A DNA stretch of 64,000 bases from a bacterium (GCA_021787855.1 JAJYLI010000001.1:3274-67273); one strand, 5' to 3'; shown: positions 4,408-52,623, numbered from the stretch's first letter. Numbers and translations are program-made. Notes: generated from the sequence alone by a model not told the origin.

Positions 4408-4983
4408 ATGACGTTAAAATTGGTGCTCAACCATTCGGTTGAGAGCGCCGTGAACAGCCCAAGCCGACAGCCATCCAGACGGGAGCGGATCCTCGCGGCG
4501 GCGGAACTGGAATTCGCGGGCGGGTTCGATGGAGCACGGGTGGACCGCATCGCCGCCAGGGCTGGCGTCAATAAGCAGTTGGTTTTTCACTACTTCGGCT
4601 CAAAGGCTGGGCTCTACCAGGCAGTCGCCACTGACGTCTCGGAGAGGCTGGGCGCCGCGACGGCCTCCGGAGAGACGACCTCCAGACAACTCCGAAGCCT
4701 GGTGGCGGCGCTGGCCGCCGCTGCGGCGGACCAGCGCGGCTTGTTGACGCCGGCTTGGAGACAGCGCGCCCTCGAGAGCGCACATGAGGTCCTCAGATCC
4801 GGCCAGGCGCGAGGTTACATCCGCGATACCGTCGAGCCGAAGGTCATCGCGGAACTCGTTGTCTCCGCATCAGTTGGATGGCAAGCGTCGCCTGAAGCTG
4901 CGCCAGGAGCCGCGCAGGCCGCGAGAGAGAGCTACTGCGACCTGATCGTTCAGGTCATCGCGGACTACTGCGCCTGGCGCTAG
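4408..4983 (+). CDS. TetR/AcrR family transcriptional regulator
   Basis: HTH region RRERILAAAELEFAGGFDGARVDRIAARAGVNKQLVFHYFGSK. The start is ambiguous: TTG 4393, ATG 4408 or GTG 4450, all in frame. Confidence 0.85.
   Translation: MTLKLVLNHSVESAVNSPSRQPSRRERILAAAELEFAGGFDGARVDRIAARAGVNKQLVFHYFGSKAGLYQAVATDVSERLGAATASGETTSRQLRSLVAALAAAAADQRGLLTPAWRQRALESAHEVLRSGQARGYIRDTVEPKVIAELVVSASVGWQASPEAAPGAAQAARESYCDLIVQVIADYCAWR
4426..4443. promoter_or_regulatory. Perfect 7-bp inverted repeat CTCAACC-N4-GGTTGAG at the 5' end of the TetR gene; candidate TetR operator
   Basis: Read from the sequence. It lies upstream of the GTG 4450 start option, or within the first codons if ATG 4408 is used. An AT-richer patch (acgttaaaattgg) lies just upstream. 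Confidence 0.4.
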
Positions 4984-5006
4984 CGATCAACTGCCCGGTT
5001 GATCGC
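4983..5006. terminator. Hairpin between the convergent TetR and lon genes (GCGATCAAC-N6-GTTGATCGC; 9-bp perfect stem)
   Basis: The stem was verified base by base. It overlaps both stop codons. No U-tract is present, so its function as a terminator is uncertain. Confidence 0.4.
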
Positions 5007-7452
5007 CAGCGCGCTTACGCGAGGGCGACGAGCCTGCGGAGAGCAGTTCGTCCACCACGGTGGCCTCGCGGCTCCTCAGCGCCAGCGACAGCACCTCCTC
5101 CAGGGACTCCACGGGGTGGAAGACGAGGCTCTTGCGGACCTCTTCCGGCAGGTCGGCCAGCTCCGGCTCGTTCTCCTTGGGCAGCACGATCTCCGCGATC
5201 CCGGCTCGCGCGGCGCCGAGCACCTTCTCTTTGAGGCCGCCGATCGGCAGGACGCGGCCGCTCAGCGTGATCTCGCCCGTCATGGCCAGGTCGTGGCGTG
5301 CGCTCCGCTGGGTCATGGCGCTCACCAGGGCTGTGGCCATGGTGACTCCGGCCGAGGGGCCATCCTTGGGAATGGCGCCGGCGGGCACGTGGATGTGGAC
5401 CTCGCGCTCCTTGAGCATCGCCTCGCCGACGCCAAGCTCGGTGGCGTGGGTCTTGGCGTAGGTCAGCGCGGCCCGCGCTGACTCCTTCATGACGTCGCCG
5501 AGATGGCCGGTCAGAACGAGCTCGCCCTTGCCGGGCATCAGCGAGGCTTCGACGAACATGATGTCGCCGCCGGTGGGCGTGTAGTACATGCCGGTGGCGG
5601 TGCCCACGAGGTCGCTCACGGCCGCGCGTTCCGGCCTCACCTTGGCCCGCCCGAGGCGCTCGCGGATCTCCGTGCCGGTCACCACGATCGGCGCGCCGCC
5701 GTCGCTGGCGACCTGGCGCGCGATCTTCCGCGCCAGCCGGCCGAGCTCGCGCTCGAGCTGCCGGACCCCGGCTTCCCGGGTGTAGCCGGAGATGATCTCA
5801 CGGACCGCGGAGTCCTCGATCTGGAGCCGCTCGCTCGTCAACCCGTTCTCGCTCAGCTGCCGCGGCACCAGGTACTGGCGCGCGATGGCCAGCTTCTCCT
5901 GCTCCGTGTACCCGGTGAACTCCACCGTTTCCAGCCGGTCCAGCAGCGGCCCGGGGATGTTCTGCGGGAAGTTGGCGGTGGCGATGAACAGCACCTCGGA
6001 GAGGTCGAAGGGCACGCCGAGATAGTGGTCCGTGAAGGAGTCGTTCTGCGCGGGGTCCAGCACCTCGAGCAGCGCCGCCGCGGGGTCACCCTGGAAGGAG
6101 ACGCCGAGCTTGTCCACCTCGTCCAGCAGGAACACCGGGTTCTTCGTGCCCGCCTGCTTCATGCCCTGAATGATCCGGCCCGGCATCGCGCCCACGTAGG
6201 TGCGCCGGTGGCCCCGGATGTCGGCCTCGTCCCGCGCGCCGCCCAGGGAGATGCGCACGTACTTGCGGCCCATCGCCCGGGCGATGGACTTCGCGATGGA
6301 CGTCTTCCCGGTGCCCGGCGGGCCGACGAACAGCAGGATCGGCCCCTTGGCCAGGACCCGGTCGTCCGCCTGGCCCGGCGGCTCCGCGGCGGCCTTCGCC
6401 CGCTCGGCGCTCTCCTCCCGCGCGCGCAGCTGGCGCACCGCCAGGAACTCCAGCACCCGATCCTTGACGTCGCGCAACCCGTAGTGGTCCTCCTCCAGCA
6501 CCTGCTCCGCGTGCGCCAGATCCAGCGAATCGTCGGAGCGGCGGTTCCAAGGCAGCTCCGCGATCCACTCCAGATAGGTGCGGATCACCTGAGCTTCCAT
6601 CGAATCCTTGGCGGTCCGATCCAGCCGCCCCAGCTCGCGCTCGACCTCCTCCTTGGCCGCCTCCGGCAGCTCCAGCTTCTCCAGCTTCTCGCGCAGGGCC
6701 GCGGCGTCGCGATCGTCCTCGCTCTCCCCCAGCTCGCGCCGGATGGCCTTGAGCTGCTCCCGCAGGTACATCTCGCGCTGCCGTTCGCCCAGTTCCTCCT
6801 GCACCTGCGACTTGATGTCCTCCTGGGCGTTGATGACCCCGATCTGCCGCTGCACCAGGACCAGGATCCGGCGCAGCCGCTCCTCCACGGGCAGCATCTC
6901 CAGCAGGTGCTGGCGCTCCGGCGTCTTGGCGTCGAGATAGCCCGCCACCAGGTCCGCGAACCGTCCCGCGTCGGTGACCGACGCCAGCACCTGCTGCACC
7001 ATCTCCTCGGGCAGGCCGCTCTTCTGCCCCAGCTCCGCCGCGCGCTCGCGCCCCTCCTTGTACAGCGCGACGAACGCCGCGTCGTTCGCGTCCGCCGGCG
7101 GCTGGTCGCTCAGCTCCAGGACGGACGCCTCGAGGAAGCCGTCCTTCTCCACCACGTGCACCGCGCTCGCGCGGTACTCGCCCTGCAGCAGCAGCTGCAC
7201 GCCGGCCAGCCCGCGCTGCATCTGCCCGATGCGCGCCACGGTGCCGATCTGGTAGAGGTTCTCAGGCGTGACCTGCTCGGTGTTCTCCCGCTGCGCCACC
7301 GCGAAGATCTGCCGCTTCTCACCCTTCAGCGCGGCCTCGATGGCCCGCAGCGTCCCCGTGCGCCCCGCGCTGATGGGCGCGGTCACGCCGGGGAATAGCA
7401 CCATGTCCCGCAGCGGCAGCACGGGCAGACTCAGTCGCTCGCTCATCGTCAT
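4987..7452 (-). CDS. lon: ATP-dependent Lon protease (LonA type)
   Basis: Lon N-domain LPVLPLRDMVLFPGV, Walker A GPPGTGKTS, and protease domain with the catalytic-Ser context KDGPSAGVTMATAL. Start trimmed to MTMSERL (ATG 7452); the ORF-track extension to 7524 looks non-coding. Confidence 0.95.
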   Translation of the reverse strand: MTMSERLSLPVLPLRDMVLFPGVTAPISAGRTGTLRAIEAALKGEKRQIFAVAQRENTEQVTPENLYQIGTVARIGQMQRGLAGVQLLLQGEYRASAVHVVEKDGFLEASVLELSDQPPADANDAAFVALYKEGRERAAELGQKSGLPEEMVQQVLASVTDAGRFADLVAGYLDAKTPERQHLLEMLPVEERLRRILVLVQRQIGVINAQEDIKSQVQEELGERQREMYLREQLKAIRRELGESEDDRDAAALREKLEKLELPEAAKEEVERELGRLDRTAKDSMEAQVIRTYLEWIAELPWNRRSDDSLDLAHAEQVLEEDHYGLRDVKDRVLEFLAVRQLRAREESAERAKAAAEPPGQADDRVLAKGPILLFVGPPGTGKTSIAKSIARAMGRKYVRISLGGARDEADIRGHRRTYVGAMPGRIIQGMKQAGTKNPVFLLDEVDKLGVSFQGDPAAALLEVLDPAQNDSFTDHYLGVPFDLSEVLFIATANFPQNIPGPLLDRLETVEFTGYTEQEKLAIARQYLVPRQLSENGLTSERLQIEDSAVREIISGYTREAGVRQLERELGRLARKIARQVASDGGAPIVVTGTEIRERLGRAKVRPERAAVSDLVGTATGMYYTPTGGDIMFVEASLMPGKGELVLTGHLGDVMKESARAALTYAKTHATELGVGEAMLKEREVHIHVPAGAIPKDGPSAGVTMATALVSAMTQRSARHDLAMTGEITLSGRVLPIGGLKEKVLGAARAGIAEIVLPKENEPELADLPEEVRKSLVFHPVESLEEVLSLALRSREATVVDELLSAGSSPSRKRAGDQPGS

Positions 7453-17434: not shown

Positions 17435-18663
17435 GCCGGGCCGTCCAGCGGCCGCAGCACCACGCCGGTCGGCACCTTGGGCGCGAAGAAGGTGGACTTG
17501 GGGGGCATGATCTGGCCGGCGTCCGCCACGCGGCGCACCGCTTCGAGGCGGGTCGGCGGCAGGAGCAGCGCGCAGGCACAGCGCGCTCCGCTCGCCGCGG
17601 CGCGCGCCTCCGCCGCGTCGGCGGTGTAGCTCAGCTCCGGCACGCGGCCCAGCAGCGCCTTCCCCACCACCCCCACCGCCACGCCGTCGGCCGCCGCGAC
17701 CTCCAGAGCCCGGAGGGCCGGATGGAGCGGGCGCCCCTCGGGCCCCGGGATCTCCGCCTCCGGTTTGAGCAGCAGCGGCACTTCCGCCCCCCCGGCAAAC
17801 ACGGCCGTGAGGGTTGGCGCCGCGCCGGGCGGCGCGGGCGCGAAGTACGGTGCCGCCGCGGCCACGAAGGCGTCGCGATCGAGCGGCGGCCCCGCGAGCA
17901 TCCGGTGGGTGGGCAGAATCACCAGGCCAGGGTCGCGGAACGAGACCACGTAGGCCAGCGTCCGCGCGGCGCCCGCGCGCCATGACTCCGGGGCCTCGTC
18001 GCGGAACAGCACCGACGTCTCGAACCGGTGATGGCCGTCCGCGACGTACACCGGCTCCGCGCCGGCGACCTCCGCGAGGCTCCGGGCCTCCTCGCCCGCG
18101 ATGATCCACACCGTCTGCTCGAATCCCAGCGCCTCGCACGCGGCCCACGGCGCCCGCGCCGTCGCCGAGCGCAGGGCCGCGGCCAGGGACCCCGCCGGGT
18201 CCGGCGCGAGCAGGAACACCGGGCTGAGGTTGGCGCCGGTCGCGTGCATCAGCCGGCGGCGGTCCTCCTTCGCCGCGCCGTGGGTCCGCTCGTGCGGCCG
18301 GATCCGGCCGCGGGCGAACGGCTCCGCCGCGGCCGCCAGGAACACGCCGGTGCGCGCCCGCACCACGCCGTCGGGGAACCGCCCCGCCGTGCGCAGCACA
18401 CAGGCCGTGGGTTCGGCGTCCCGGGCCAGGATGCGGGCGTCACGCCAGCTTCGCAGGGTCCGCGCGGCCTCCGCGTACGGGTCCGCGCCGGCGGGCGCCG
18501 CCGGCAGGTCCACCGCCGCGATGTTGTACGGATCGCCGCGGACCAGCTCCGCGCGCTCCGCCGGCCCGATCACGTCGTAGGGGGGCGCCAGCCGCCGGGC
18601 CAGCGCGCCCGGGTCGGCGTAGCGCTCGCCGCGGAACGGCGCGAACAGGGCCTGCCCGCTCAC
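17431..18663 (-). CDS. DUF1015 domain-containing protein
   Basis: FAPFRGERY...PPYDVI N-terminus, IRPHERT, and YVADGHHRFETS, all typical of DUF1015. GTG start overlaps the upstream stop (GTGA). Confidence 0.8.
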   Translation of the reverse strand: MSGQALFAPFRGERYADPGALARRLAPPYDVIGPAERAELVRGDPYNIAAVDLPAAPAGADPYAEAARTLRSWRDARILARDAEPTACVLRTAGRFPDGVVRARTGVFLAAAAEPFARGRIRPHERTHGAAKEDRRRLMHATGANLSPVFLLAPDPAGSLAAALRSATARAPWAACEALGFEQTVWIIAGEEARSLAEVAGAEPVYVADGHHRFETSVLFRDEAPESWRAGAARTLAYVVSFRDPGLVILPTHRMLAGPPLDRDAFVAAAAPYFAPAPPGAAPTLTAVFAGGAEVPLLLKPEAEIPGPEGRPLHPALRALEVAAADGVAVGVVGKALLGRVPELSYTADAAEARAAASGARCACALLLPPTRLEAVRRVADAGQIMPPKSTFFAPKVPTGVVLRPLDGPA

Positions 18664-25153: not shown

Positions 25154-26633
25154 CCCTGGCCATGTCGCGCGCCACCGTCGGCACGGCCAGCAGCAGCAGC
25201 GCGCCGCCCAGCAGGCCCACCGCCGGCAGGGTCATCAGCGCGAGGCGCAACCCGTAGCGGTCCGACAGGTAGCCCACCACGGGCAGGGCGATGGCGTCCC
25301 CGCCGATGTGGATGAAGAACACGTACACGCCCATCACCGTGGCGGCGATCCCGCGCGGCACGACGTCGAACAGCACCGCGGCGATCGGGCCGTTGTACCA
25401 CGTGAAGCAGAAGACGACCACGAAGAACAGCGCCGAGAACAGCCGCACGTCGCTCACCAGCAGCAGCACCACGCACACCGGCGCCCCGAGCAGGAAGCCC
25501 ATCGCGCTGGCGATCACCCGCCCCGCGGGGGTCACCTCCATGAGGCGGTCGCCGAGCCGCCCCCCGATCCACGAGCCGAGCACGCCGGCCACCAGGCCGA
25601 CCAGCCCGATCTGCCGGCCCGCCTGGACGAGCGTGAGGTCGAGCACGCGCTGCAGGTAGCTCGCGGACCAGGCCACCAGCGAGTTCATCGCCGCCGCGGT
25701 CAGGGCGCCGCCCACGAACATCCAGATGAGCGTCGGCGTCCGCAGCACGACGCCGGCCGCCTCCAGCATCTCGTCCACCGCGTCGGCCGGCGCGGAGGCC
25801 AGGAGCGGGCGCCGCCGCAGCGCGATGCGCACCCACTTGACCACGGTCCACACCAGGCCCAGGCCGACGACCGAGACGAACACGGCGGTGTCGAGCCGCG
25901 GTGGCAGGCCCCGCGCCAGCCCCAGGAACCCGAACGCCGCGGCGCCCACCAGGATCGCCACCAGGAGCGGCAGCGCGGCCCGGAACACCAGCCGGGTGGT
26001 GATCGGGAAGGGCCGCGCGGGCGGCTTCCCGGAGGGCGCGCGCCGCGGGCGCGGATCCTCGAGCCGCCGCAGGAGCAGCGCGAACAGCAGCCCCGGCAGG
26101 CCCACGACGACCAGCGCCGTACGCCATCCGAAGGTGGTCGCCAGGCGGCCTCCCAGCCACACGGCCAGGACGCCCCCCACGGCGAGCCCGATCCAGAAGA
26201 TGCCCATCGCCTGCGCGCGGCCCTTGCGGGGGAAGTAGTCGGCGAGCAGCGCCTGCGCCGAGGGCAGGTACGACGACTCCGCGAAGCCGACCACCCCACG
26301 CGTGGTGAGCAGGTGCCAGTACGACCCCGCCACGCCGCCCAGCGCGGTGAACCCGCTCCACACCGCCAGCCCGCCCGCGATGATGGTGCGCCGCGACCAC
26401 AGGTCGGAGAGCACGCCGGTGATCAGGGCGCCGAGCGCGAAGGTGATGGCGAACGAGGAGCCCAGCCACCCGAGCTGGGTGTCGGTGATGTGGAGTTCGT
26501 GCTTGATCGGCTCGAACAGCGCCAGGATGATGTTGCGGTCGAGGTAGTTCAGCAGGTTCCCGAAGGCCAGCAGCCCGAGGGCGTACCAGACGTAGCGGCT
26601 GCCGTGGCGGGGAGCGGCGCGGTCGGGGCTCAT
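25131..26633 (-). CDS. MFS transporter (Spinster-like)
   Basis: About 12 predicted TM segments. MFS motif LSDLWSRRTIIAGG and LNYLDRNI near the N-terminus. Its 3' end overlaps the glpD 3' end by 23 nt. Confidence 0.85.
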   Translation of the reverse strand: MSPDRAAPRHGSRYVWYALGLLAFGNLLNYLDRNIILALFEPIKHELHITDTQLGWLGSSFAITFALGALITGVLSDLWSRRTIIAGGLAVWSGFTALGGVAGSYWHLLTTRGVVGFAESSYLPSAQALLADYFPRKGRAQAMGIFWIGLAVGGVLAVWLGGRLATTFGWRTALVVVGLPGLLFALLLRRLEDPRPRRAPSGKPPARPFPITTRLVFRAALPLLVAILVGAAAFGFLGLARGLPPRLDTAVFVSVVGLGLVWTVVKWVRIALRRRPLLASAPADAVDEMLEAAGVVLRTPTLIWMFVGGALTAAAMNSLVAWSASYLQRVLDLTLVQAGRQIGLVGLVAGVLGSWIGGRLGDRLMEVTPAGRVIASAMGFLLGAPVCVVLLLVSDVRLFSALFFVVVFCFTWYNGPIAAVLFDVVPRGIAATVMGVYVFFIHIGGDAIALPVVGYLSDRYGLRLALMTLPAVGLLGGALLLLAVPTVARDMARVRPAEPA

Positions 26634-29992: not shown

Positions 29993-30745
29993 CTACAGTC
30001 CCGTGGGATGGTCAACGAACGACCAGGGCAGCCGGAACCGCTCGGCGAGATGCTCGGCCAGGGCCTGGACGCCAAGGGTCTCCGTCGCGTAGTGCCCCGC
30101 GTAGTACACGTTCAGCCCGAGCTCTTCCGCGTCGAAGTACGTCCAGTGCTGCCCTTCACCGGTGATGAAGGAATCGAGGTCGGCCGCGCGGGCCTGCGCG
30201 ATCATCGAACCGGCGCTGCCGGTGATGATGCCCACCCGCCGCGTGCGCGGCGGCCCCCCGGCGATCAACCGCACCGGCGTGCCCAGGCTCTCGGCCAGCC
30301 GGTCGCGCAGCGCCTCCCGCGCCAAATCGAGCTCTCCCCACGCGCCGATCGGCGCCCCGCGGTACTCCCCGAACCAGCCCCGCACCTCCATTCCCAGCTT
30401 CCGCGCCAGCACCACGTTGTTGCCCACTTCGGGGTGGCGATCCAGCGGAAGATGCGCCGCGTACAGCGCGATACCGTGCCGCACCAGCGACGCCACCCTC
30501 CGGAAGTGCCGTCCCACCAGCGGCTCCAGCCCCGACCAGAACACTCCATGATGCACCAGCAACAGATCCGCGCCGCGTTCGGCGGCCTGCTCGATGACCG
30601 CCTGGCAGGCGTCCACCGCGACGACCACGCTCCCGACCTCGCCGCTGTTCTCGACCTGCAGCCCGTTCAAGGCGTGCGGGTCGTCAGCGATCTCGCGCGT
30701 GCGCAGATAGCCGTCCAGGTACTGCACCAGATCGTCGAGACGCAC
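29993..30745 (-). CDS. Nif3-like dinuclear metal centre protein (YbgI/YqfO family)
   Basis: DPHALNGLQV, LLLVHHGVFW, LYAAHLPLD and YAGHYATE. GTG start with GGAGG 11 nt upstream. Confidence 0.85.
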   Translation of the reverse strand: MRLDDLVQYLDGYLRTREIADDPHALNGLQVENSGEVGSVVVAVDACQAVIEQAAERGADLLLVHHGVFWSGLEPLVGRHFRRVASLVRHGIALYAAHLPLDRHPEVGNNVVLARKLGMEVRGWFGEYRGAPIGAWGELDLAREALRDRLAESLGTPVRLIAGGPPRTRRVGIITGSAGSMIAQARAADLDSFITGEGQHWTYFDAEELGLNVYYAGHYATETLGVQALAEHLAERFRLPWSFVDHPTGL

Positions 30746-30828: not shown

Positions 30829-31356
30829 CTATTGGGCTTGGGTCTGGCCCGCCGATCGCGGCGGCGCCGCGATGCGCGCCAGCGGCACCGTAGCGACGCG
30901 GCCCGCTCCGGGTTGAGGCTTCGGCTCCGCCTGCCTGCCGATCGGACGCTCGTCGCGCTCCGGCGCGCCGCCCCCCATGCGAATCAGGCCGTTGAGGCTT
31001 CCCCCCTCCGCCACGGTGATGCGGTTGGTGGTGATGTCGCCCTGGACGGACGCTCCGGCCTGGACCTCGACGCGGTCGTGGGCGTGGATGGCGCCGTTGA
31101 CCGTGCCGCCCACCACCACCTCGGTGGTCTCGATGTCGCCGTGCACGACGCCTCCCTTGGCCACCAGGACCTGGGCCTGCGCGCGCACGGCGCCGTCCAC
31201 GATGCCTTCAACCTTCACGACGCCGTTGCTCTCAAGGTCGCCGTGCACCGTCATGCCGGCGCCTACGATGGAGAGGCCCGGTGCGGCGGGGGCGCCCTTG
31301 TGCTCGGGGCGCGACGTCTCCCGCCCCGATGCTGGATCCTTGCCGAACATGCCCAT
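30829..31356 (-). CDS. Bactofilin (DUF583 polymer-forming cytoskeletal protein)
   Basis: Beta-helical repeat core: IVGAGMTVHGDLESNGVVKVEGIVDGAVRAQAQVLVAKGGVVHGDIETTEVVVGGTVNGAIHAHDRVEVQAGASVQGDITTNRITVAEGGSLNG. Disordered tails flank the core. Confidence 0.9.
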   Translation of the reverse strand: MGMFGKDPASGRETSRPEHKGAPAAPGLSIVGAGMTVHGDLESNGVVKVEGIVDGAVRAQAQVLVAKGGVVHGDIETTEVVVGGTVNGAIHAHDRVEVQAGASVQGDITTNRITVAEGGSLNGLIRMGGGAPERDERPIGRQAEPKPQPGAGRVATVPLARIAAPPRSAGQTQAQ

Positions 31357-31358
31357 CG

Positions 31359-32183
31359 TTACGGTCCCTCCCGGACCAGCGACAGCGGGTCCACCGAACG
31401 GCCGTCGTGGCGCACCTCGAAATGGAGATGGGGTGCGGTCGAGCGGCCGGTGTTTCCGGAAAGCGCGATCACCTGTCCCGCGGAGACGTCCTGCCCGGCG
31501 GCGACGAGCACCCGAGAGAGGTGGCCGTACATGGTCTCGTAGCCGTCGGGGTGCTGCAGCAGGACGAACAACCCGTACGAGGAGTCGGTACCGGTGCGCT
31601 CGACGACGCCGCCGCCGGCGGCCCGCACGTCCGAGCCCTCCGGGACCGCGAGGTCAATGCCGGGGTGCAGCTCCTCCCCGTTCGCGCTCGTCACCATGCC
31701 GCGGGTGCGGTACGACGGGACGTCGAGCGGCCAGCGGTGCGGAACGGACGGGCCCGCGGAGTCCGCGCCGGACGTTGATGCGGCCGCGGGCGAGAGGGCG
31801 AGGATGGGAGGCGCCACGTACAGTTGCGCGGTGCTCACCTCGCCGGCCGGCGCGCCCGCAGAGTCCGACGGCAGGGGGGGAATCGCCGCGCCCAGCATCC
31901 CTCTGAGGTGGGCGTAGCGGGCCTCGGCCGCGGCGAGGGCCCGCGCCAGGTCGTCCACCCGCGCGTTCTCGCGGGTCAGGACCGTGACCCGGTGCTCCAG
32001 CCACGGGGCACGGGCCGCGGCGCCCAGGATCGGCCCGTAGGCGGCGACCACGATCACGCTGGCGACCAGAGCGACGCTCAAGACGATGGCGGCGGCACGC
32101 ACCAGCCAGGAGGAAACCGCGAACTGACGCGTCTGGAGCGCGCCGTTCTTGTGGATGATGATCGTGTAGCCGGGGCCGCGCAC
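31359..32183 (-). CDS. Membrane-anchored M23/LytM endopeptidase (short cytoplasmic tail, TM helix, coiled coil, M23 domain; LmdC-like architecture)
   Basis: TM helix WLVRAAAIVLSVALVASVIVVAAY. Coiled coil [33 protein letters not shown]23 metal ligands HPGID and APHLHFEV. GTG start overlaps the parB stop by 1 nt. Confidence 0.85.
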   Translation of the reverse strand: MRGPGYTIIIHKNGALQTRQFAVSSWLVRAAAIVLSVALVASVIVVAAYGPILGAAARAPWLEHRVTVLTRENARVDDLARALAAAEARYAHLRGMLGAAIPPLPSDSAGAPAGEVSTAQLYVAPPILALSPAAASTSGADSAGPSVPHRWPLDVPSYRTRGMVTSANGEELHPGIDLAVPEGSDVRAAGGGVVERTGTDSSYGLFVLLQHPDGYETMYGHLSRVLVAAGQDVSAGQVIALSGNTGRSTAPHLHFEVRHDGRSVDPLSLVREGP

Positions 32184-33079
32184 TAGCCGTCCCAGCGCCG
32201 GCCCAGGATCAGCTCGAGCAACCGGACGAGATCCTCGGAGGAGTAGAAGCGCAACTGCAGATGACCCTTGGCCTTCCCGGTCAGGACCACGACGGCGTCG
32301 GTACCCAGTTTCTTGCGCAGCGCGGCCTCGATCCGCACCGCCTCGGGTGATACCCCGTGACGCGTGGCGCGGCCCCCTCCCCCTTTGCGCCGCTGGGTCG
32401 CGCCGCCGCGCGCATGCCGCTCCATCTCGCGGACCGACCAGCCCTGGGCCACGCCCAGCCGGGCCAGCCGTTCCATCTGACGCTCGTCATCCAGGCTGAG
32501 TAACGCCCGGGCGTGCCCGGCCGTCAACGCGTCGGCCGCGATCAACTCCTGCACGGAGGCGGGGAGGTTCAACAGCCGGATGGCGTTGGCCACCGTGGAG
32601 CGGTCGCGGCCCACAGCCTCGGCGATGGCGGCGTGGGGGAGGGCGAACTCCCGCGCCAGCCGCTCGTAGCCCTGCGCCTCGTCAATGGCGCTCAGCGACG
32701 CTCGCTGCAGGTTCTCGACGAGGGCGAGCGTGAGGAGCGTGCGGTCGTCCACGTCGCGCACGACGGCCGGGATGTGCTTCCACCCCAGTTCCCGCACCGC
32801 CCGCCAGCGCCGCTCGCCCGCCACCAGCTCGTAGCCCGCGCCGTTCTGACGGACCACGACCGGCTGCAACAGGCCGCTGGCCGCGATGGAGGCCTTGAGC
32901 TCGGCCAGGGACGCGGGGTCCACCGTCCGGCGGGGCTGGAAGCGGTTGGGCTCGAGCGCCTCGACGGGCAGCTGGCGCAGCATCCCCTCGCGCTCGGCCT
33001 CGTCCACCGTTCCGACGCCGAGCAGCGCTTCGAGACCGCGGCCCAGGCGGCGGCGCGGGGAGGGGGCGGCGGGGCTCAC
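32183..33079 (-). CDS. parB: Chromosome partitioning protein ParB
   Basis: LGRGLEALLG, the GLLQPVVVR box, GERRWRA and an HTH region. Overlaps parA by 4 nt. Confidence 0.95.
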   Translation of the reverse strand: MSPAAPSPRRRLGRGLEALLGVGTVDEAEREGMLRQLPVEALEPNRFQPRRTVDPASLAELKASIAASGLLQPVVVRQNGAGYELVAGERRWRAVRELGWKHIPAVVRDVDDRTLLTLALVENLQRASLSAIDEAQGYERLAREFALPHAAIAEAVGRDRSTVANAIRLLNLPASVQELIAADALTAGHARALLSLDDERQMERLARLGVAQGWSVREMERHARGGATQRRKGGGGRATRHGVSPEAVRIEAALRKKLGTDAVVVLTGKAKGHLQLRFYSSEDLVRLLELILGRRWDG

Positions 33080-33903
33080 CTGGCCACCTCGGGGATCGCG
33101 GCGCGGGCCGGCTCGCGGCCGTCGCCCGCCAGCTTGGACGCGGTGCGCCGGATCAGCTCCTCCGCGACGCTGAGGTAGCTCTGCGCCCCGACCGAGCCGA
33201 TGTCGTAGAGCAGGATCGGCTTGCCGAAGCTCGGCGCTTCGGCCAGCCGCACGTTCCGCGGCACCGCCGTCGAGAACATCCGCGGGCCGAAGTACTCCTT
33301 GGCCTCGGCGGCGACCTGGCGGGAGAGATTGAGCCGCGCGTCGTACATGGTCAGCAGCACCCCGTCAATCGCCAGCCGCGGATTGAAGTTGCGCTGGACC
33401 AGGCGCACGGTATTGAGCAGCTGGGACAGCCCCTCGAGGGCGTAGTACTCGCACTGGATCGGAATGATGACCGAGTCGGCGGCCGTGAGCATGTTGAGCG
33501 TCAGCAGGCCCAGCGAGGGCGGGCAGTCCATCAGGATGTAGTCGTACGACCGCCGCACCCCCTCCAGGGCTCCCCGCATGATCGTCTCGCGGTGGGCTCG
33601 CGCGACCAGCTCGACCTCGGCACCCACCAGATCCCGCGACGCGGGAGCCACGTCCAGATGAGGGAAGTGGACGGAGCGCCGGACGACGTCCGCGAGGGGG
33701 CGGTTGTCGAGCAGCACCTCGTAGACCGTGAGCTGGAGCCCGTCGCGCTCGAGGCCGACGCCGCTGGTCGCGTTGGCCTGCGGATCGGCGTCCACCAGCA
33801 GCGTGCGCTTCTCCGCCGCGGCCAGGGACGCGGCGAGGTTGACGGCCGAGGTGGTCTTCCCGACGCCGCCCTTCTGATTGGCGATTGCGATCACGCGGGC
33901 CAT
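33076..33903 (-). CDS. parA: Chromosome partitioning ATPase ParA (Soj)
   Basis: Deviant Walker A: MARVIAIANQKGGVGKTTSAVNLA, then LLVDADPQANAT. Start taken at ATG 33903; the track start at 33927 is a TTG. The C-terminal tail is about 20 aa longer than typical. Confidence 0.95.
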   Translation of the reverse strand: MARVIAIANQKGGVGKTTSAVNLAASLAAAEKRTLLVDADPQANATSGVGLERDGLQLTVYEVLLDNRPLADVVRRSVHFPHLDVAPASRDLVGAEVELVARAHRETIMRGALEGVRRSYDYILMDCPPSLGLLTLNMLTAADSVIIPIQCEYYALEGLSQLLNTVRLVQRNFNPRLAIDGVLLTMYDARLNLSRQVAAEAKEYFGPRMFSTAVPRNVRLAEAPSFGKPILLYDIGSVGAQSYLSVAEELIRRTASKLAGDGREPARAAIPEVAR

Positions 33904-33947
33904 GAGGGGGCAGAATCTAGCCCGCAACTGCCGCCGGCTACAAGAGT

Positions 33948-33963
33948 TGTTTCACGTGCAACA
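33948..33963. other. parS: parS centromere-like site TGTTTCACGTGCAACA
   Basis: A 16-bp palindrome, 15/16 identical to the canonical parS TGTTNCACGTGAAACA, 45 nt upstream of the parA ATG. It is the only such site I found in the window. Confidence 0.75.
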
Positions 33964-33990: not shown

Positions 33991-35265
33991 TCAGCTCTGC
34001 CTGGTCCAGCGCCATAACTCCTTCAGGCTCGGGCGCTTGCCGTACATCAGGATGCCGACTCGATAGACCCTGGCCGACAGCCATACCACCAACAGGCTGG
34101 TCGCGGCGCTGATCGCCAGGGACAGCGCGAGCTGGGCCGCCGGCACATCCGAGGTGGCCACCCGCACCGGCATGATGATGGGGGAGGAGAAGGGGATCAG
34201 GGACGTCACCACGGCCATCCGGCCGCCGGGGTCGTTCAGGGCCGCGAACGACACGATCAGCGAGAAGACCAGCAGCATCATCACCGGCTGCTGGGCCTGC
34301 TGGGCCTCGGAGTCCGCCGTGACCGACGCCCCCACGACCGCGAACATCGCCGAATAGAGCAGGTAGCCCAGGAGGAAGTACGCCGCGACCACCACCAACA
34401 GGCTCGCGCTGATGGCCGGCATGGTGATCGCGCTGACCTGCGCGGCCGGGACGTGGAACGCCCCGAGCACCTGCACGCGGAAGTGCACCACGAGCCAGCC
34501 GGTCAGGCCCCAGATGACGAACTGGAACAGCCCCACCCCGCCGACGCCGACGACCTTGCCCAGCATGAGCTGGAAGGGGCGCAGGCTGGAGACCAGCACC
34601 TCGATGATCCGGGTCTGCTTCTCCTCCAGGACGCTGCGCATCACGTTGATGCCGTAGATCAGGATGATCATGTACAACACGATCCCCACCCCGTAGCCCA
34701 GGAAGAACGTCACGGTGCCGGACTGCCCCGTGGCACCGTGCTTCGTGATCCGGACCGTCTCCAGGCTGATGCCCCGCTGCGCCCCCTGCACCAGGGCGGG
34801 ATCCACCCCCAGACGCGTCAGCCGCTCGGTGACGATCGTCTGGCGCAGCAGGTTCTCCAGCACGGCCATGTCCCGGAGCGAGGACACATTCCGGCCCTCG
34901 TACTCGGCCAGCCCGGAGTCCACCGTGGCCGCCGAGATCGTCAGGAAGCCGTCCAGCGTCTCCAGCCGCACCGCGCGGGTCAGCGAGTCCTTGAGCGCCG
35001 CCAGCCGCCCGGTGCTCGCGGGGATCACCGTCACGCGGAACCGCCCCGAGCCCTCGAGCTGCGACTGGAGACGGGCCGCGAAGGGGCCCGACCCCTGGTC
35101 CACGAGCGCGATGTCGTTGACGCCCCCCGCCCGCGTCATCAGCAGGCCCGGCAGCACGGTCACCCCGATCATGAACAGGGGCCCCAGGATCGTGGACACC
35201 AGGAACCATTTCGAGCGGACGCGCTCGACGAACTCGCGGCGGATTACGGCCCAGACCTTACGCAT
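33991..35265 (-). CDS. ABC-2 type transporter permease (NatB-like)
   Basis: N-terminal TM helix, large extracytoplasmic domain and five C-terminal TM segments. MRKVWAVIRREFVERVRSKWFLVSTILGPLFM is typical of the family. Confidence 0.8.
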   Translation of the reverse strand: MRKVWAVIRREFVERVRSKWFLVSTILGPLFMIGVTVLPGLLMTRAGGVNDIALVDQGSGPFAARLQSQLEGSGRFRVTVIPASTGRLAALKDSLTRAVRLETLDGFLTISAATVDSGLAEYEGRNVSSLRDMAVLENLLRQTIVTERLTRLGVDPALVQGAQRGISLETVRITKHGATGQSGTVTFFLGYGVGIVLYMIILIYGINVMRSVLEEKQTRIIEVLVSSLRPFQLMLGKVVGVGGVGLFQFVIWGLTGWLVVHFRVQVLGAFHVPAAQVSAITMPAISASLLVVVAAYFLLGYLLYSAMFAVVGASVTADSEAQQAQQPVMMLLVFSLIVSFAALNDPGGRMAVVTSLIPFSSPIIMPVRVATSDVPAAQLALSLAISAATSLLVVWLSARVYRVGILMYGKRPSLKELWRWTRQS

Positions 35266-51033: not shown

Positions 51034-51103
51034 ACAGTCGCACGACGGAGGGGAGCGGGGGGACGCTTGCCCCCCATCTCCGAGCGGTCTAATTTGCTTT
51101 TCA

Positions 51104-52623
<1,520 letters not shown>

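Follow-up and report, generated by a model that had tools for sequence, protein, structure and literature searches.

The minus strand of a 64,000-nucleotide (nt) stretch of bacterial DNA, GCA_021787855.1 JAJYLI010000001.1:3274-67273 (the window), carries a compact block of four genes: parA, parB, a gene for an M23 (LytM) metalloendopeptidase and a bactofilin gene, preceded by a parS centromere site (Table 1). Judged by the organisms named as sources of its closest homologues, the host is a Gemmatimonadales bacterium. An original prediction had named the four genes, and had read them as one co-transcribed unit in which chromosome segregation is hard-wired to local remodelling of the cell wall. 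Pfam agrees with it on all four identities, ParA, ParB, the M23 protein and the bactofilin.

Table 1. Position and properties of the par-M23-bactofilin block and of the genes that adjoin it (coordinates of the window)
Feature	Position	Strand	Properties
ABC-2 permease gene	33991..35265	minus	ends 87 nt upstream of parA; Pfam ABC2_membrane_3 2.4e-47
parS centromere site	33948-33963	minus	reads TGTTGCACGTGAAACA on the gene strand and matches the consensus TGTTNCACGTGAAACA exactly
parA, Soj-type Walker ATPase	33076..33903	minus	ATG start, 275 amino acids (aa), N-terminus MARVIAIANQKGGVGKTT; Pfam AAA_31 1.6e-66, CbiA, ParA
parB	32183..33079	minus	GTG start, 298 aa; Pfam ParB_N 3.5e-34, HTH_ParB 3e-31
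LmdC-type bitopic M23 metalloendopeptidase gene	31359..32183	minus	GTG start, 274 aa; Pfam Peptidase_M23 7e-35, residues 172-266
Cytoplasmic beta-hairpin of the M23 protein, candidate bactofilin-binding tail	32112..32171	minus	residues 5-24, GYTIIIHKNGALQTRQFAVS; AlphaFold
Transmembrane (TM) helix and long periplasmic helix of the M23 protein	31896..32108	minus	TM about 26-49; residues 50-96 a coiled-coil candidate
M23 (LytM) catalytic domain	31386..31670	minus	HxxxD (H173, D177), H221 and HxH (H252, H254) intact
Bactofilin gene	30829..31356	minus	175 aa; Pfam Bactofilin (PF04519, DUF583) 8.6e-23, residues 29-124
NIF3/DUF34 gene	29993..30745	minus	83 nt downstream of the bactofilin gene; Pfam DUF34_NIF3 1.8e-61

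The parS site begins 27 nt past the stop codon of the ABC-2 permease gene, and its 3' end is separated from the parA ATG (33903) by 44 nt. It had been described as a palindrome one mismatch away from canonical parS. The site stands, but it is symmetric at only 14 of its 16 positions, and the mismatch was counted because the plus strand had been read; the gene strand matches TGTTNCACGTGAAACA exactly. No match to this consensus occurred in 100 dinucleotide-preserving shuffles of the window. ParA has a Soj-type deviant Walker A motif (KGGVGKTT, residues 10-17) and is without an N-terminal helix-turn-helix (HTH). ParB scores 177.7 bits against NCBIfam TIGR00180 (cut-off 58.45) and shows the N-terminal LGRGLEALLG motif, the GERRWRA box and the HTH domain. 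Both proteins look canonical, and neither has an extra domain in Pfam or NCBIfam. With a parS match close to parAB, a Soj-type ParA, and a ParB with CTPase domain and HTH, the locus has the predicted make-up of a chromosomal ParABS system. The only other parS candidate in the window, TGTACCACGTGAAGCA at 25394-25409, has two mismatches to the consensus, a stringency at which none is expected by chance. It lies about 8.5 kb from the main parS and, from collinearity with the gene calls of a relative, seemingly inside a gene for a major facilitator superfamily (MFS) transporter.

The four genes are packed as originally described. parA and parB overlap by 4 nt within GTGA; the GTG of the M23 gene shares 1 nt with the parB TAG stop inside TAGTG (32181-32185); and the bactofilin ATG (31356) follows the M23 TAA stop after 2 nt, with a GGAGG 10 nt 5' of it. 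A consensus scan of the gene strand found no promoter-like or terminator-like site inside the block, and nothing above shuffled controls. Co-transcription of the four genes is very likely, because of these overlaps, the lack of terminators, the short junctions conserved among relatives and the precedents in two other phyla (see below), and translational coupling is likely because the reading frames overlap. The tight packing therefore supports a co-transcribed unit, but not its limitation to four genes: co-directional genes stand on both sides, and neither the 87-nt gap before parA nor the 83-nt gap after the bactofilin gene contains a terminator-like fold, both folding no better than their shuffles. 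An RNA shared with the block could thus also include the ABC-2 transporter genes on one side and NIF3 on the other.

A search of 1.84 billion representative proteins with the M23 protein returned 38 further full-length homologues; with an alignment of the full-length homologues we then scanned a set of genomes, one for each species. Its 80 best loci belong to Gemmatimonadales, Longimicrobiales, further Gemmatimonadota, five Zixibacteria and three metagenome-assembled genomes (MAGs) without classification, with M23 proteins down to 32% identical to that of the window. At every evaluable locus the M23 gene is immediately preceded by parB (74/74) and immediately followed by the bactofilin gene (78/78), and parA is upstream of parB (69/69). 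The order parA-parB-M23-bactofilin, whose absence from related genomes had been named in advance as a reason to abandon the idea of a unit, is thus kept wherever it could be evaluated in 80 genomes of Gemmatimonadota and Zixibacteria. Since the loci were picked via the M23 orthologue, parAB loci without it lie outside the sample, and the survey shows that the M23 gene always stands behind parB, not that the module accompanies all parAB loci of these phyla. To look further afield, a profile was built from the most distant M23 orthologues; its best 120 matches comprised only Zixibacteria. The strict conservation of the block across two phyla is a real and previously unreported lead.

The junctions are also conserved. 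With start codons chosen crudely, their median lengths are -4 nt for parA-parB, -4 nt for parB-M23 and +1 nt for M23-bactofilin. At the parB-M23 junction 46 of 74 loci overlap, 60 have at most 10 nt between the genes, and eight have more than 50 nt, the gap sometimes reaching 60-200 nt in the more distant loci. A parS site with at most one mismatch was found within 300 nt upstream of parA at 45 of 67 evaluable loci, and 300-1600 nt upstream at 15 of 67; all 87 sites lie upstream of parA, none downstream of its start. Longimicrobiales and some other Gemmatimonadota (survey loci L055, L061, L066-L069, L071, L080 and L086) have a parS variant with full symmetry, TGTTCCACGTGGAACA, which often occurs upstream of parA as two copies separated by about 44 nt. 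Two MAGs have an irregular parB, which is split over two frames or has its best start deep inside the open reading frame (L009, about 5100-6000; L052, about 4590-5850); these anomalies could be frameshifts or assembly errors.

The flanks of the block are much less stable. In a Zixibacteria chromosome the order is rnpA-yidD-yidC-mnmE-gidA-gidB-parA-parB-M23-bactofilin-moxR, so that the block ends exactly the canonical origin-proximal cluster rnpA-yidC-mnmE-gidA-gidB-parA-parB, here extended by the M23 and bactofilin genes. In most Gemmatimonadota loci parA is immediately preceded by gidA (mnmG), and the bactofilin gene is followed by NIF3. In the clade of the window, however, the ABC-2 permease gene adjoins parA in the place of gidA, and the 64-kb window contains no gidA, gidB or mnmE; this clade is without the gidA part of the canonical cluster yet has the M23-bactofilin extension. 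Four close relatives have the whole Suf-DJ-1-ABC-2-parA-parB-M23-bactofilin-NIF3 region in common with the window. NIF3/DUF34 follows the bactofilin gene at 66 of 70 evaluable Gemmatimonadota loci and at none of the eight Zixibacteria or unclassified loci; in the former phylum it may belong to the unit as its fifth gene. Since the flanks change across lineages while the block persists, parS-parA-parB-M23-bactofilin is more tightly held than the classical gidA-parA link.

These data bear on the possibility that the arrangement is a historical accident, in which an M23-bactofilin pair was inserted once beside parB and has been kept by inertia, transcribed mainly from its own promoter in the 3' end of parB. 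The Gemmatimonadota seem to be related to the Zixibacteria, so that one ancestral event could explain the distribution, and the eight loci with more than 50 nt between parB and the M23 gene leave room for a promoter. However, the four genes have stayed contiguous through repeated reshuffling of the flanks, and the prevalence of overlapping or very short junctions is typical of selected co-translation rather than of drift; moreover, co-transcription of parB with a bactofilin gene is documented in two other phyla. We therefore regard mere inertia as improbable.

The M23 protein has the layout that had been proposed for it: a cytoplasmic tail, a TM helix, a coiled coil and an M23 domain. An AlphaFold model based on 39 diverse full-length homologues (alignment A2, down to 31% identity) has a mean confidence (predicted local distance difference test, pLDDT) of 87.5, and places a hairpin at residues 5-24, a helix at 25-96, a disordered linker, and the M23 domain at 150-270. 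A model from a shallow alignment (A1, homologues at 60-79% identity) had a mean pLDDT of 59 and no hairpin, and was replaced by the A2 model. The strands of the predicted hairpin, residues 5-11 and 18-24, have a pLDDT of 84-92. They lie in a cytoplasmic tail, GYTIIIHKNGALQTRQFAVSSW, that is strongly conserved among relatives: across 24 homologues T7, R19 and W26 are invariant, and G5, Y6, G14 and S18 nearly so. The helix is modelled as continuous (pLDDT 94-98) and contains the hydrophobic stretch WLVRAAAIVLSVALVASVIVVAAY; it is this single long helix that makes its periplasmic part a candidate coiled coil.

In the catalytic domain H173 and D177 (HPGID), H221, and H252 and H254 (HLHFE) are invariant in the 39 homologues, down to 31% identity, and also in alignment A1, in line with the intact LytM site noted originally. 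The best Foldseek matches of the protein are ShyA (6ue4) and Csd1 (5j1l_C; E 3e-12), with NMB0315 also near. No NCBIfam equivalog passed its cut-off, and the matches in that collection are generic and sub-threshold, to MepM, ShyA and DipM. Foldseek also pairs the protein with the LytM domains of EnvC and DipM, as might be expected if it were a catalytically dead amidase activator like EnvC or NlpD. We consider such a role highly unlikely, given that all five active-site residues are present and invariant and that the best structural and profile matches, ShyA, MepM and Csd1, are active DD-endopeptidases. Because the zinc ligands and catalytic histidines are retained in such distant homologues, the protein is probably an active endopeptidase rather than an EnvC-like regulator.

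The bactofilin has a complete beta-helical core, with positions 1-96 of the 98 in the profile covered, matches BacA (2n3d) and the Thermus thermophilus bactofilin (6ria) in the PDB, and ends in a proline-rich tail. Its N-terminus, MGMFGKDPAS (31339-31356 code for its start), resembles a membrane-targeting sequence. The consensus of such sequences in bactofilins is MFSKKKK, of which F2 and K4/K7 are critical (PMC12448750). Gemmatimonadales bactofilins begin with M-[GAS]-[IM]-F-[SGTN], followed by KK in some, which is similar to this consensus with an offset of two residues. The phenylalanine of the motif is absent from the bactofilins of Longimicrobiales (MAK..R..) and Zixibacteria (MKYQSNKSEGG or MIKK...). 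A membrane-spanning client that gives membrane contact has been shown for PbpC and BacA (PMC12448750), and by analogy these bactofilins might perhaps obtain their membrane contact from such a client. The gene also contains direct repeats spaced about 99-102 nt apart (31026-31248; families D2 and D9), which correspond to the windings of the beta-helix; the remaining repeats in the locus are no more than the chance matches that DNA of high G+C content usually gives.

Each half of the block has relatives elsewhere. The adjacency of bactofilin and M23 genes was surveyed in 226 species, none of which belongs to the Gemmatimonadota (Pohl et al. 2024, PMC10945521). The closest parallel is BacA-LmdC of Hyphomonas neptunium and Rhodospirillum rubrum, where the bactofilin gene is likewise directly beside the M23 gene. 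LmdC binds BacA through its cytoplasmic region, within which lies a conserved beta-hairpin (PMC10945521), and it shares with the protein modelled here a bitopic architecture with a short hairpin-containing tail, one TM helix, a long helical (coiled-coil) stretch and, at the C-terminus, an intact M23 domain. By eye, the tail also resembles the BacA-binding peptide of H. neptunium LmdC, IYHRSGGTVRYISISPWQ. The profile score of this likeness is weak (5.2 bits), and 14 of 2000 shuffles scored at least as high against that peptide, so that it is suggestive only. Unlike BacA-LmdC, the present pair sits at the 3' end of a parABS operon; it also belongs to another phylum. In Helicobacter pylori, according to the literature, the M23 peptidase Csd1 is tied to the bactofilin CcmA in cell-shape control. 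Its M23 domain is structurally close to that of the window's protein, but the effect of CcmA on Csd1 may be an indirect one, exerted through the stability of Csd1, and no par link is reported there.

The second pairing, of parAB with a bactofilin gene, is known from Myxococcus and Bdellovibrio. In Myxococcus xanthus parA, parB, bacM and MXAN_7474 are reported to be co-transcribed (PMC3899335), and in Bdellovibrio bacteriovorus RT-PCR showed co-transcription of parA3, parB and the bactofilin gene bd3904 (PMC7186360; also PMC10547168). In both organisms, as is very likely in the window, the bactofilin gene shares a transcript with the chromosomal parAB that it follows; there it comes immediately after parAB (PMC3899335, PMC5703909, PMC7186360, PMC10547168), and neither organism is reported to have an M23 gene in between. 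BacM acts in cell shape, and bd3904 is without an assigned function. Taking these papers together with our survey, bactofilin genes directly behind parAB occur in at least four phyla: Gemmatimonadota and Zixibacteria (survey), and Myxococcota and Bdellovibrionota (cited papers). In the searchable literature we found no description of the four-gene unit and no substantive link between bactofilins and Gemmatimonadota. The unit had been suggested to be uncharacterised, but it is not without precedent, since both pairings are known, from Bdellovibrio, Myxococcus and the M23-bactofilin survey. What is new is that two known pairings are united in one block conserved across two phyla; all its parts and pairwise links are known elsewhere.

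We propose, with a probability of about 0.68, that the locus combines a canonical ParABS system and a bactofilin-guided, LmdC-type wall hydrolase in one operon, and that the two are linked mainly by shared expression. A single mRNA that starts near the upstream region with parS would encode all four proteins. ParB would load at parS, and ParA would segregate the origin region in the canonical way. The bactofilin would polymerise on the cytoplasmic face of the membrane and capture the beta-hairpin tail of the bitopic M23 protein, so that DD-endopeptidase activity in the periplasm would be confined to a defined zone of the wall, as with BacA-LmdC in Hyphomonas and Rhodospirillum. Adjacency, architecture and the conserved hairpin make such an interaction between bactofilin and M23 protein likely. 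The tie to ParAB could consist in the same promoter and the same timing or dosage, possibly with autoregulation by ParB, which is conceivable given the position of parS upstream of the genes. Most probably it is this shared expression that joins the two halves, an obligatory physical complex being less likely; ParAB and the module may also be linked directly, in function or by contact.

The claim that segregation and wall remodelling are hard-wired to each other could not be upheld. Shared transcription is the one ground for it, and BacM of M. xanthus is dispensable for segregation and for the positioning of ParA and ParB (PMC3899335, PMC5703909). This only experimental precedent that we found for a par-adjacent bactofilin is therefore negative. 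A closer coupling can nevertheless be imagined: a bactofilin polymer anchored by the M23 protein might position ParB-parS or ParA, in the manner of BacNOP-PadC, PopZ or HubP, or ParB-parS might mark the site of the hydrolase, for instance at a bud or constriction. The unbroken linkage (74/74 and 78/78 loci) in two phyla, which outlives the loss of the gidA neighbour, would fit such coupling, as would the recurrence of parAB-bactofilin linkage in Myxococcota and Bdellovibrionota. In M. xanthus bactofilins are indeed functionally tied to ParABS: BacNOP scaffold it, although they are encoded elsewhere and require PadC (PMC5703909). The bacNOP-padC genes lie away from parAB, however, and PadC, the required adaptor, has a ParB-like CTPase domain. 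A phmmer search with ParB detected no PadC-like or second ParB-like open reading frame in the 64-kb window, and the window has no further bactofilin or M23 gene. ParA and ParB themselves look canonical and carry no added domain, and the par-adjacent BacM has no effect on where ParA and ParB localise. Thermus thermophilus, considered as a further case, was rejected: there the M23-bactofilin pair has a thymidine phosphorylase gene on one side and accD/accA on the other, far from parAB, which indicates that the par link is lineage-specific and counts against coupling. On balance we hold physical or functional coupling to be rather unlikely. A bolder version, which we think quite unlikely, is that the bactofilin and its M23 client are the missing positional anchor of ParABS in Gemmatimonadota and Zixibacteria, making origin capture and local wall opening, for instance at a bud or division site, physically one machine, and that the operons of Myxococcota and Bdellovibrionota are remnants of the same ancient coupling.

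Several points weigh against an operon whose two halves share mainly their expression. The transcription unit is predicted from the DNA sequence, and the scan, made with a sigma-70 consensus, does not cover the kind of promoter that Gemmatimonadota use, so that an internal promoter in parB is possible. The contact between tail and bactofilin is suggested by architecture, and the likeness of the tail to the LmdC peptide is weak. Sampling through the M23 gene cannot show that the module is present at every parAB locus of these phyla. Finally, from the opposite side, there may be more than shared expression behind so strict a conservation, which holds even where the gidA-parA link broke.

Should the common operon reflect real coordination, it would offer a simple genetic handle on how segregation is tied to wall remodelling in little-studied phyla; some cultured Gemmatimonadota are reported to bud. 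If the link is co-expression only, the locus is another well-conserved BacA-LmdC module. The pattern of bactofilin genes behind parAB is mentioned only in passing in the searchable literature and never explained there, and it merits a systematic test.

A search of the window for a replication origin turned up neither a cluster of DnaA boxes nor a dnaA or gidA gene. Five DnaA-box-like 9-mers with one mismatch to TTATCCACA, as compared with 1.15 expected, are scattered over positions 18102, 25307, 32150, 46182 and 56834; the one at 32150 falls within the coding sequence of IIIHK, a conserved stretch of the M23 tail. Between about 42000 and 48000 the GC skew changes sign locally, going from -0.10 to +0.065 and then back to negative values, with a local minimum of the cumulative skew near 44 kb, and this may reflect a switch of the gene strand. 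A thiamine pyrophosphate (TPP) riboswitch (RF00059), which is unrelated to the par block, lies on the plus strand at 51098-51193 and scores 68.1 bits against a gathering score of 54.3.

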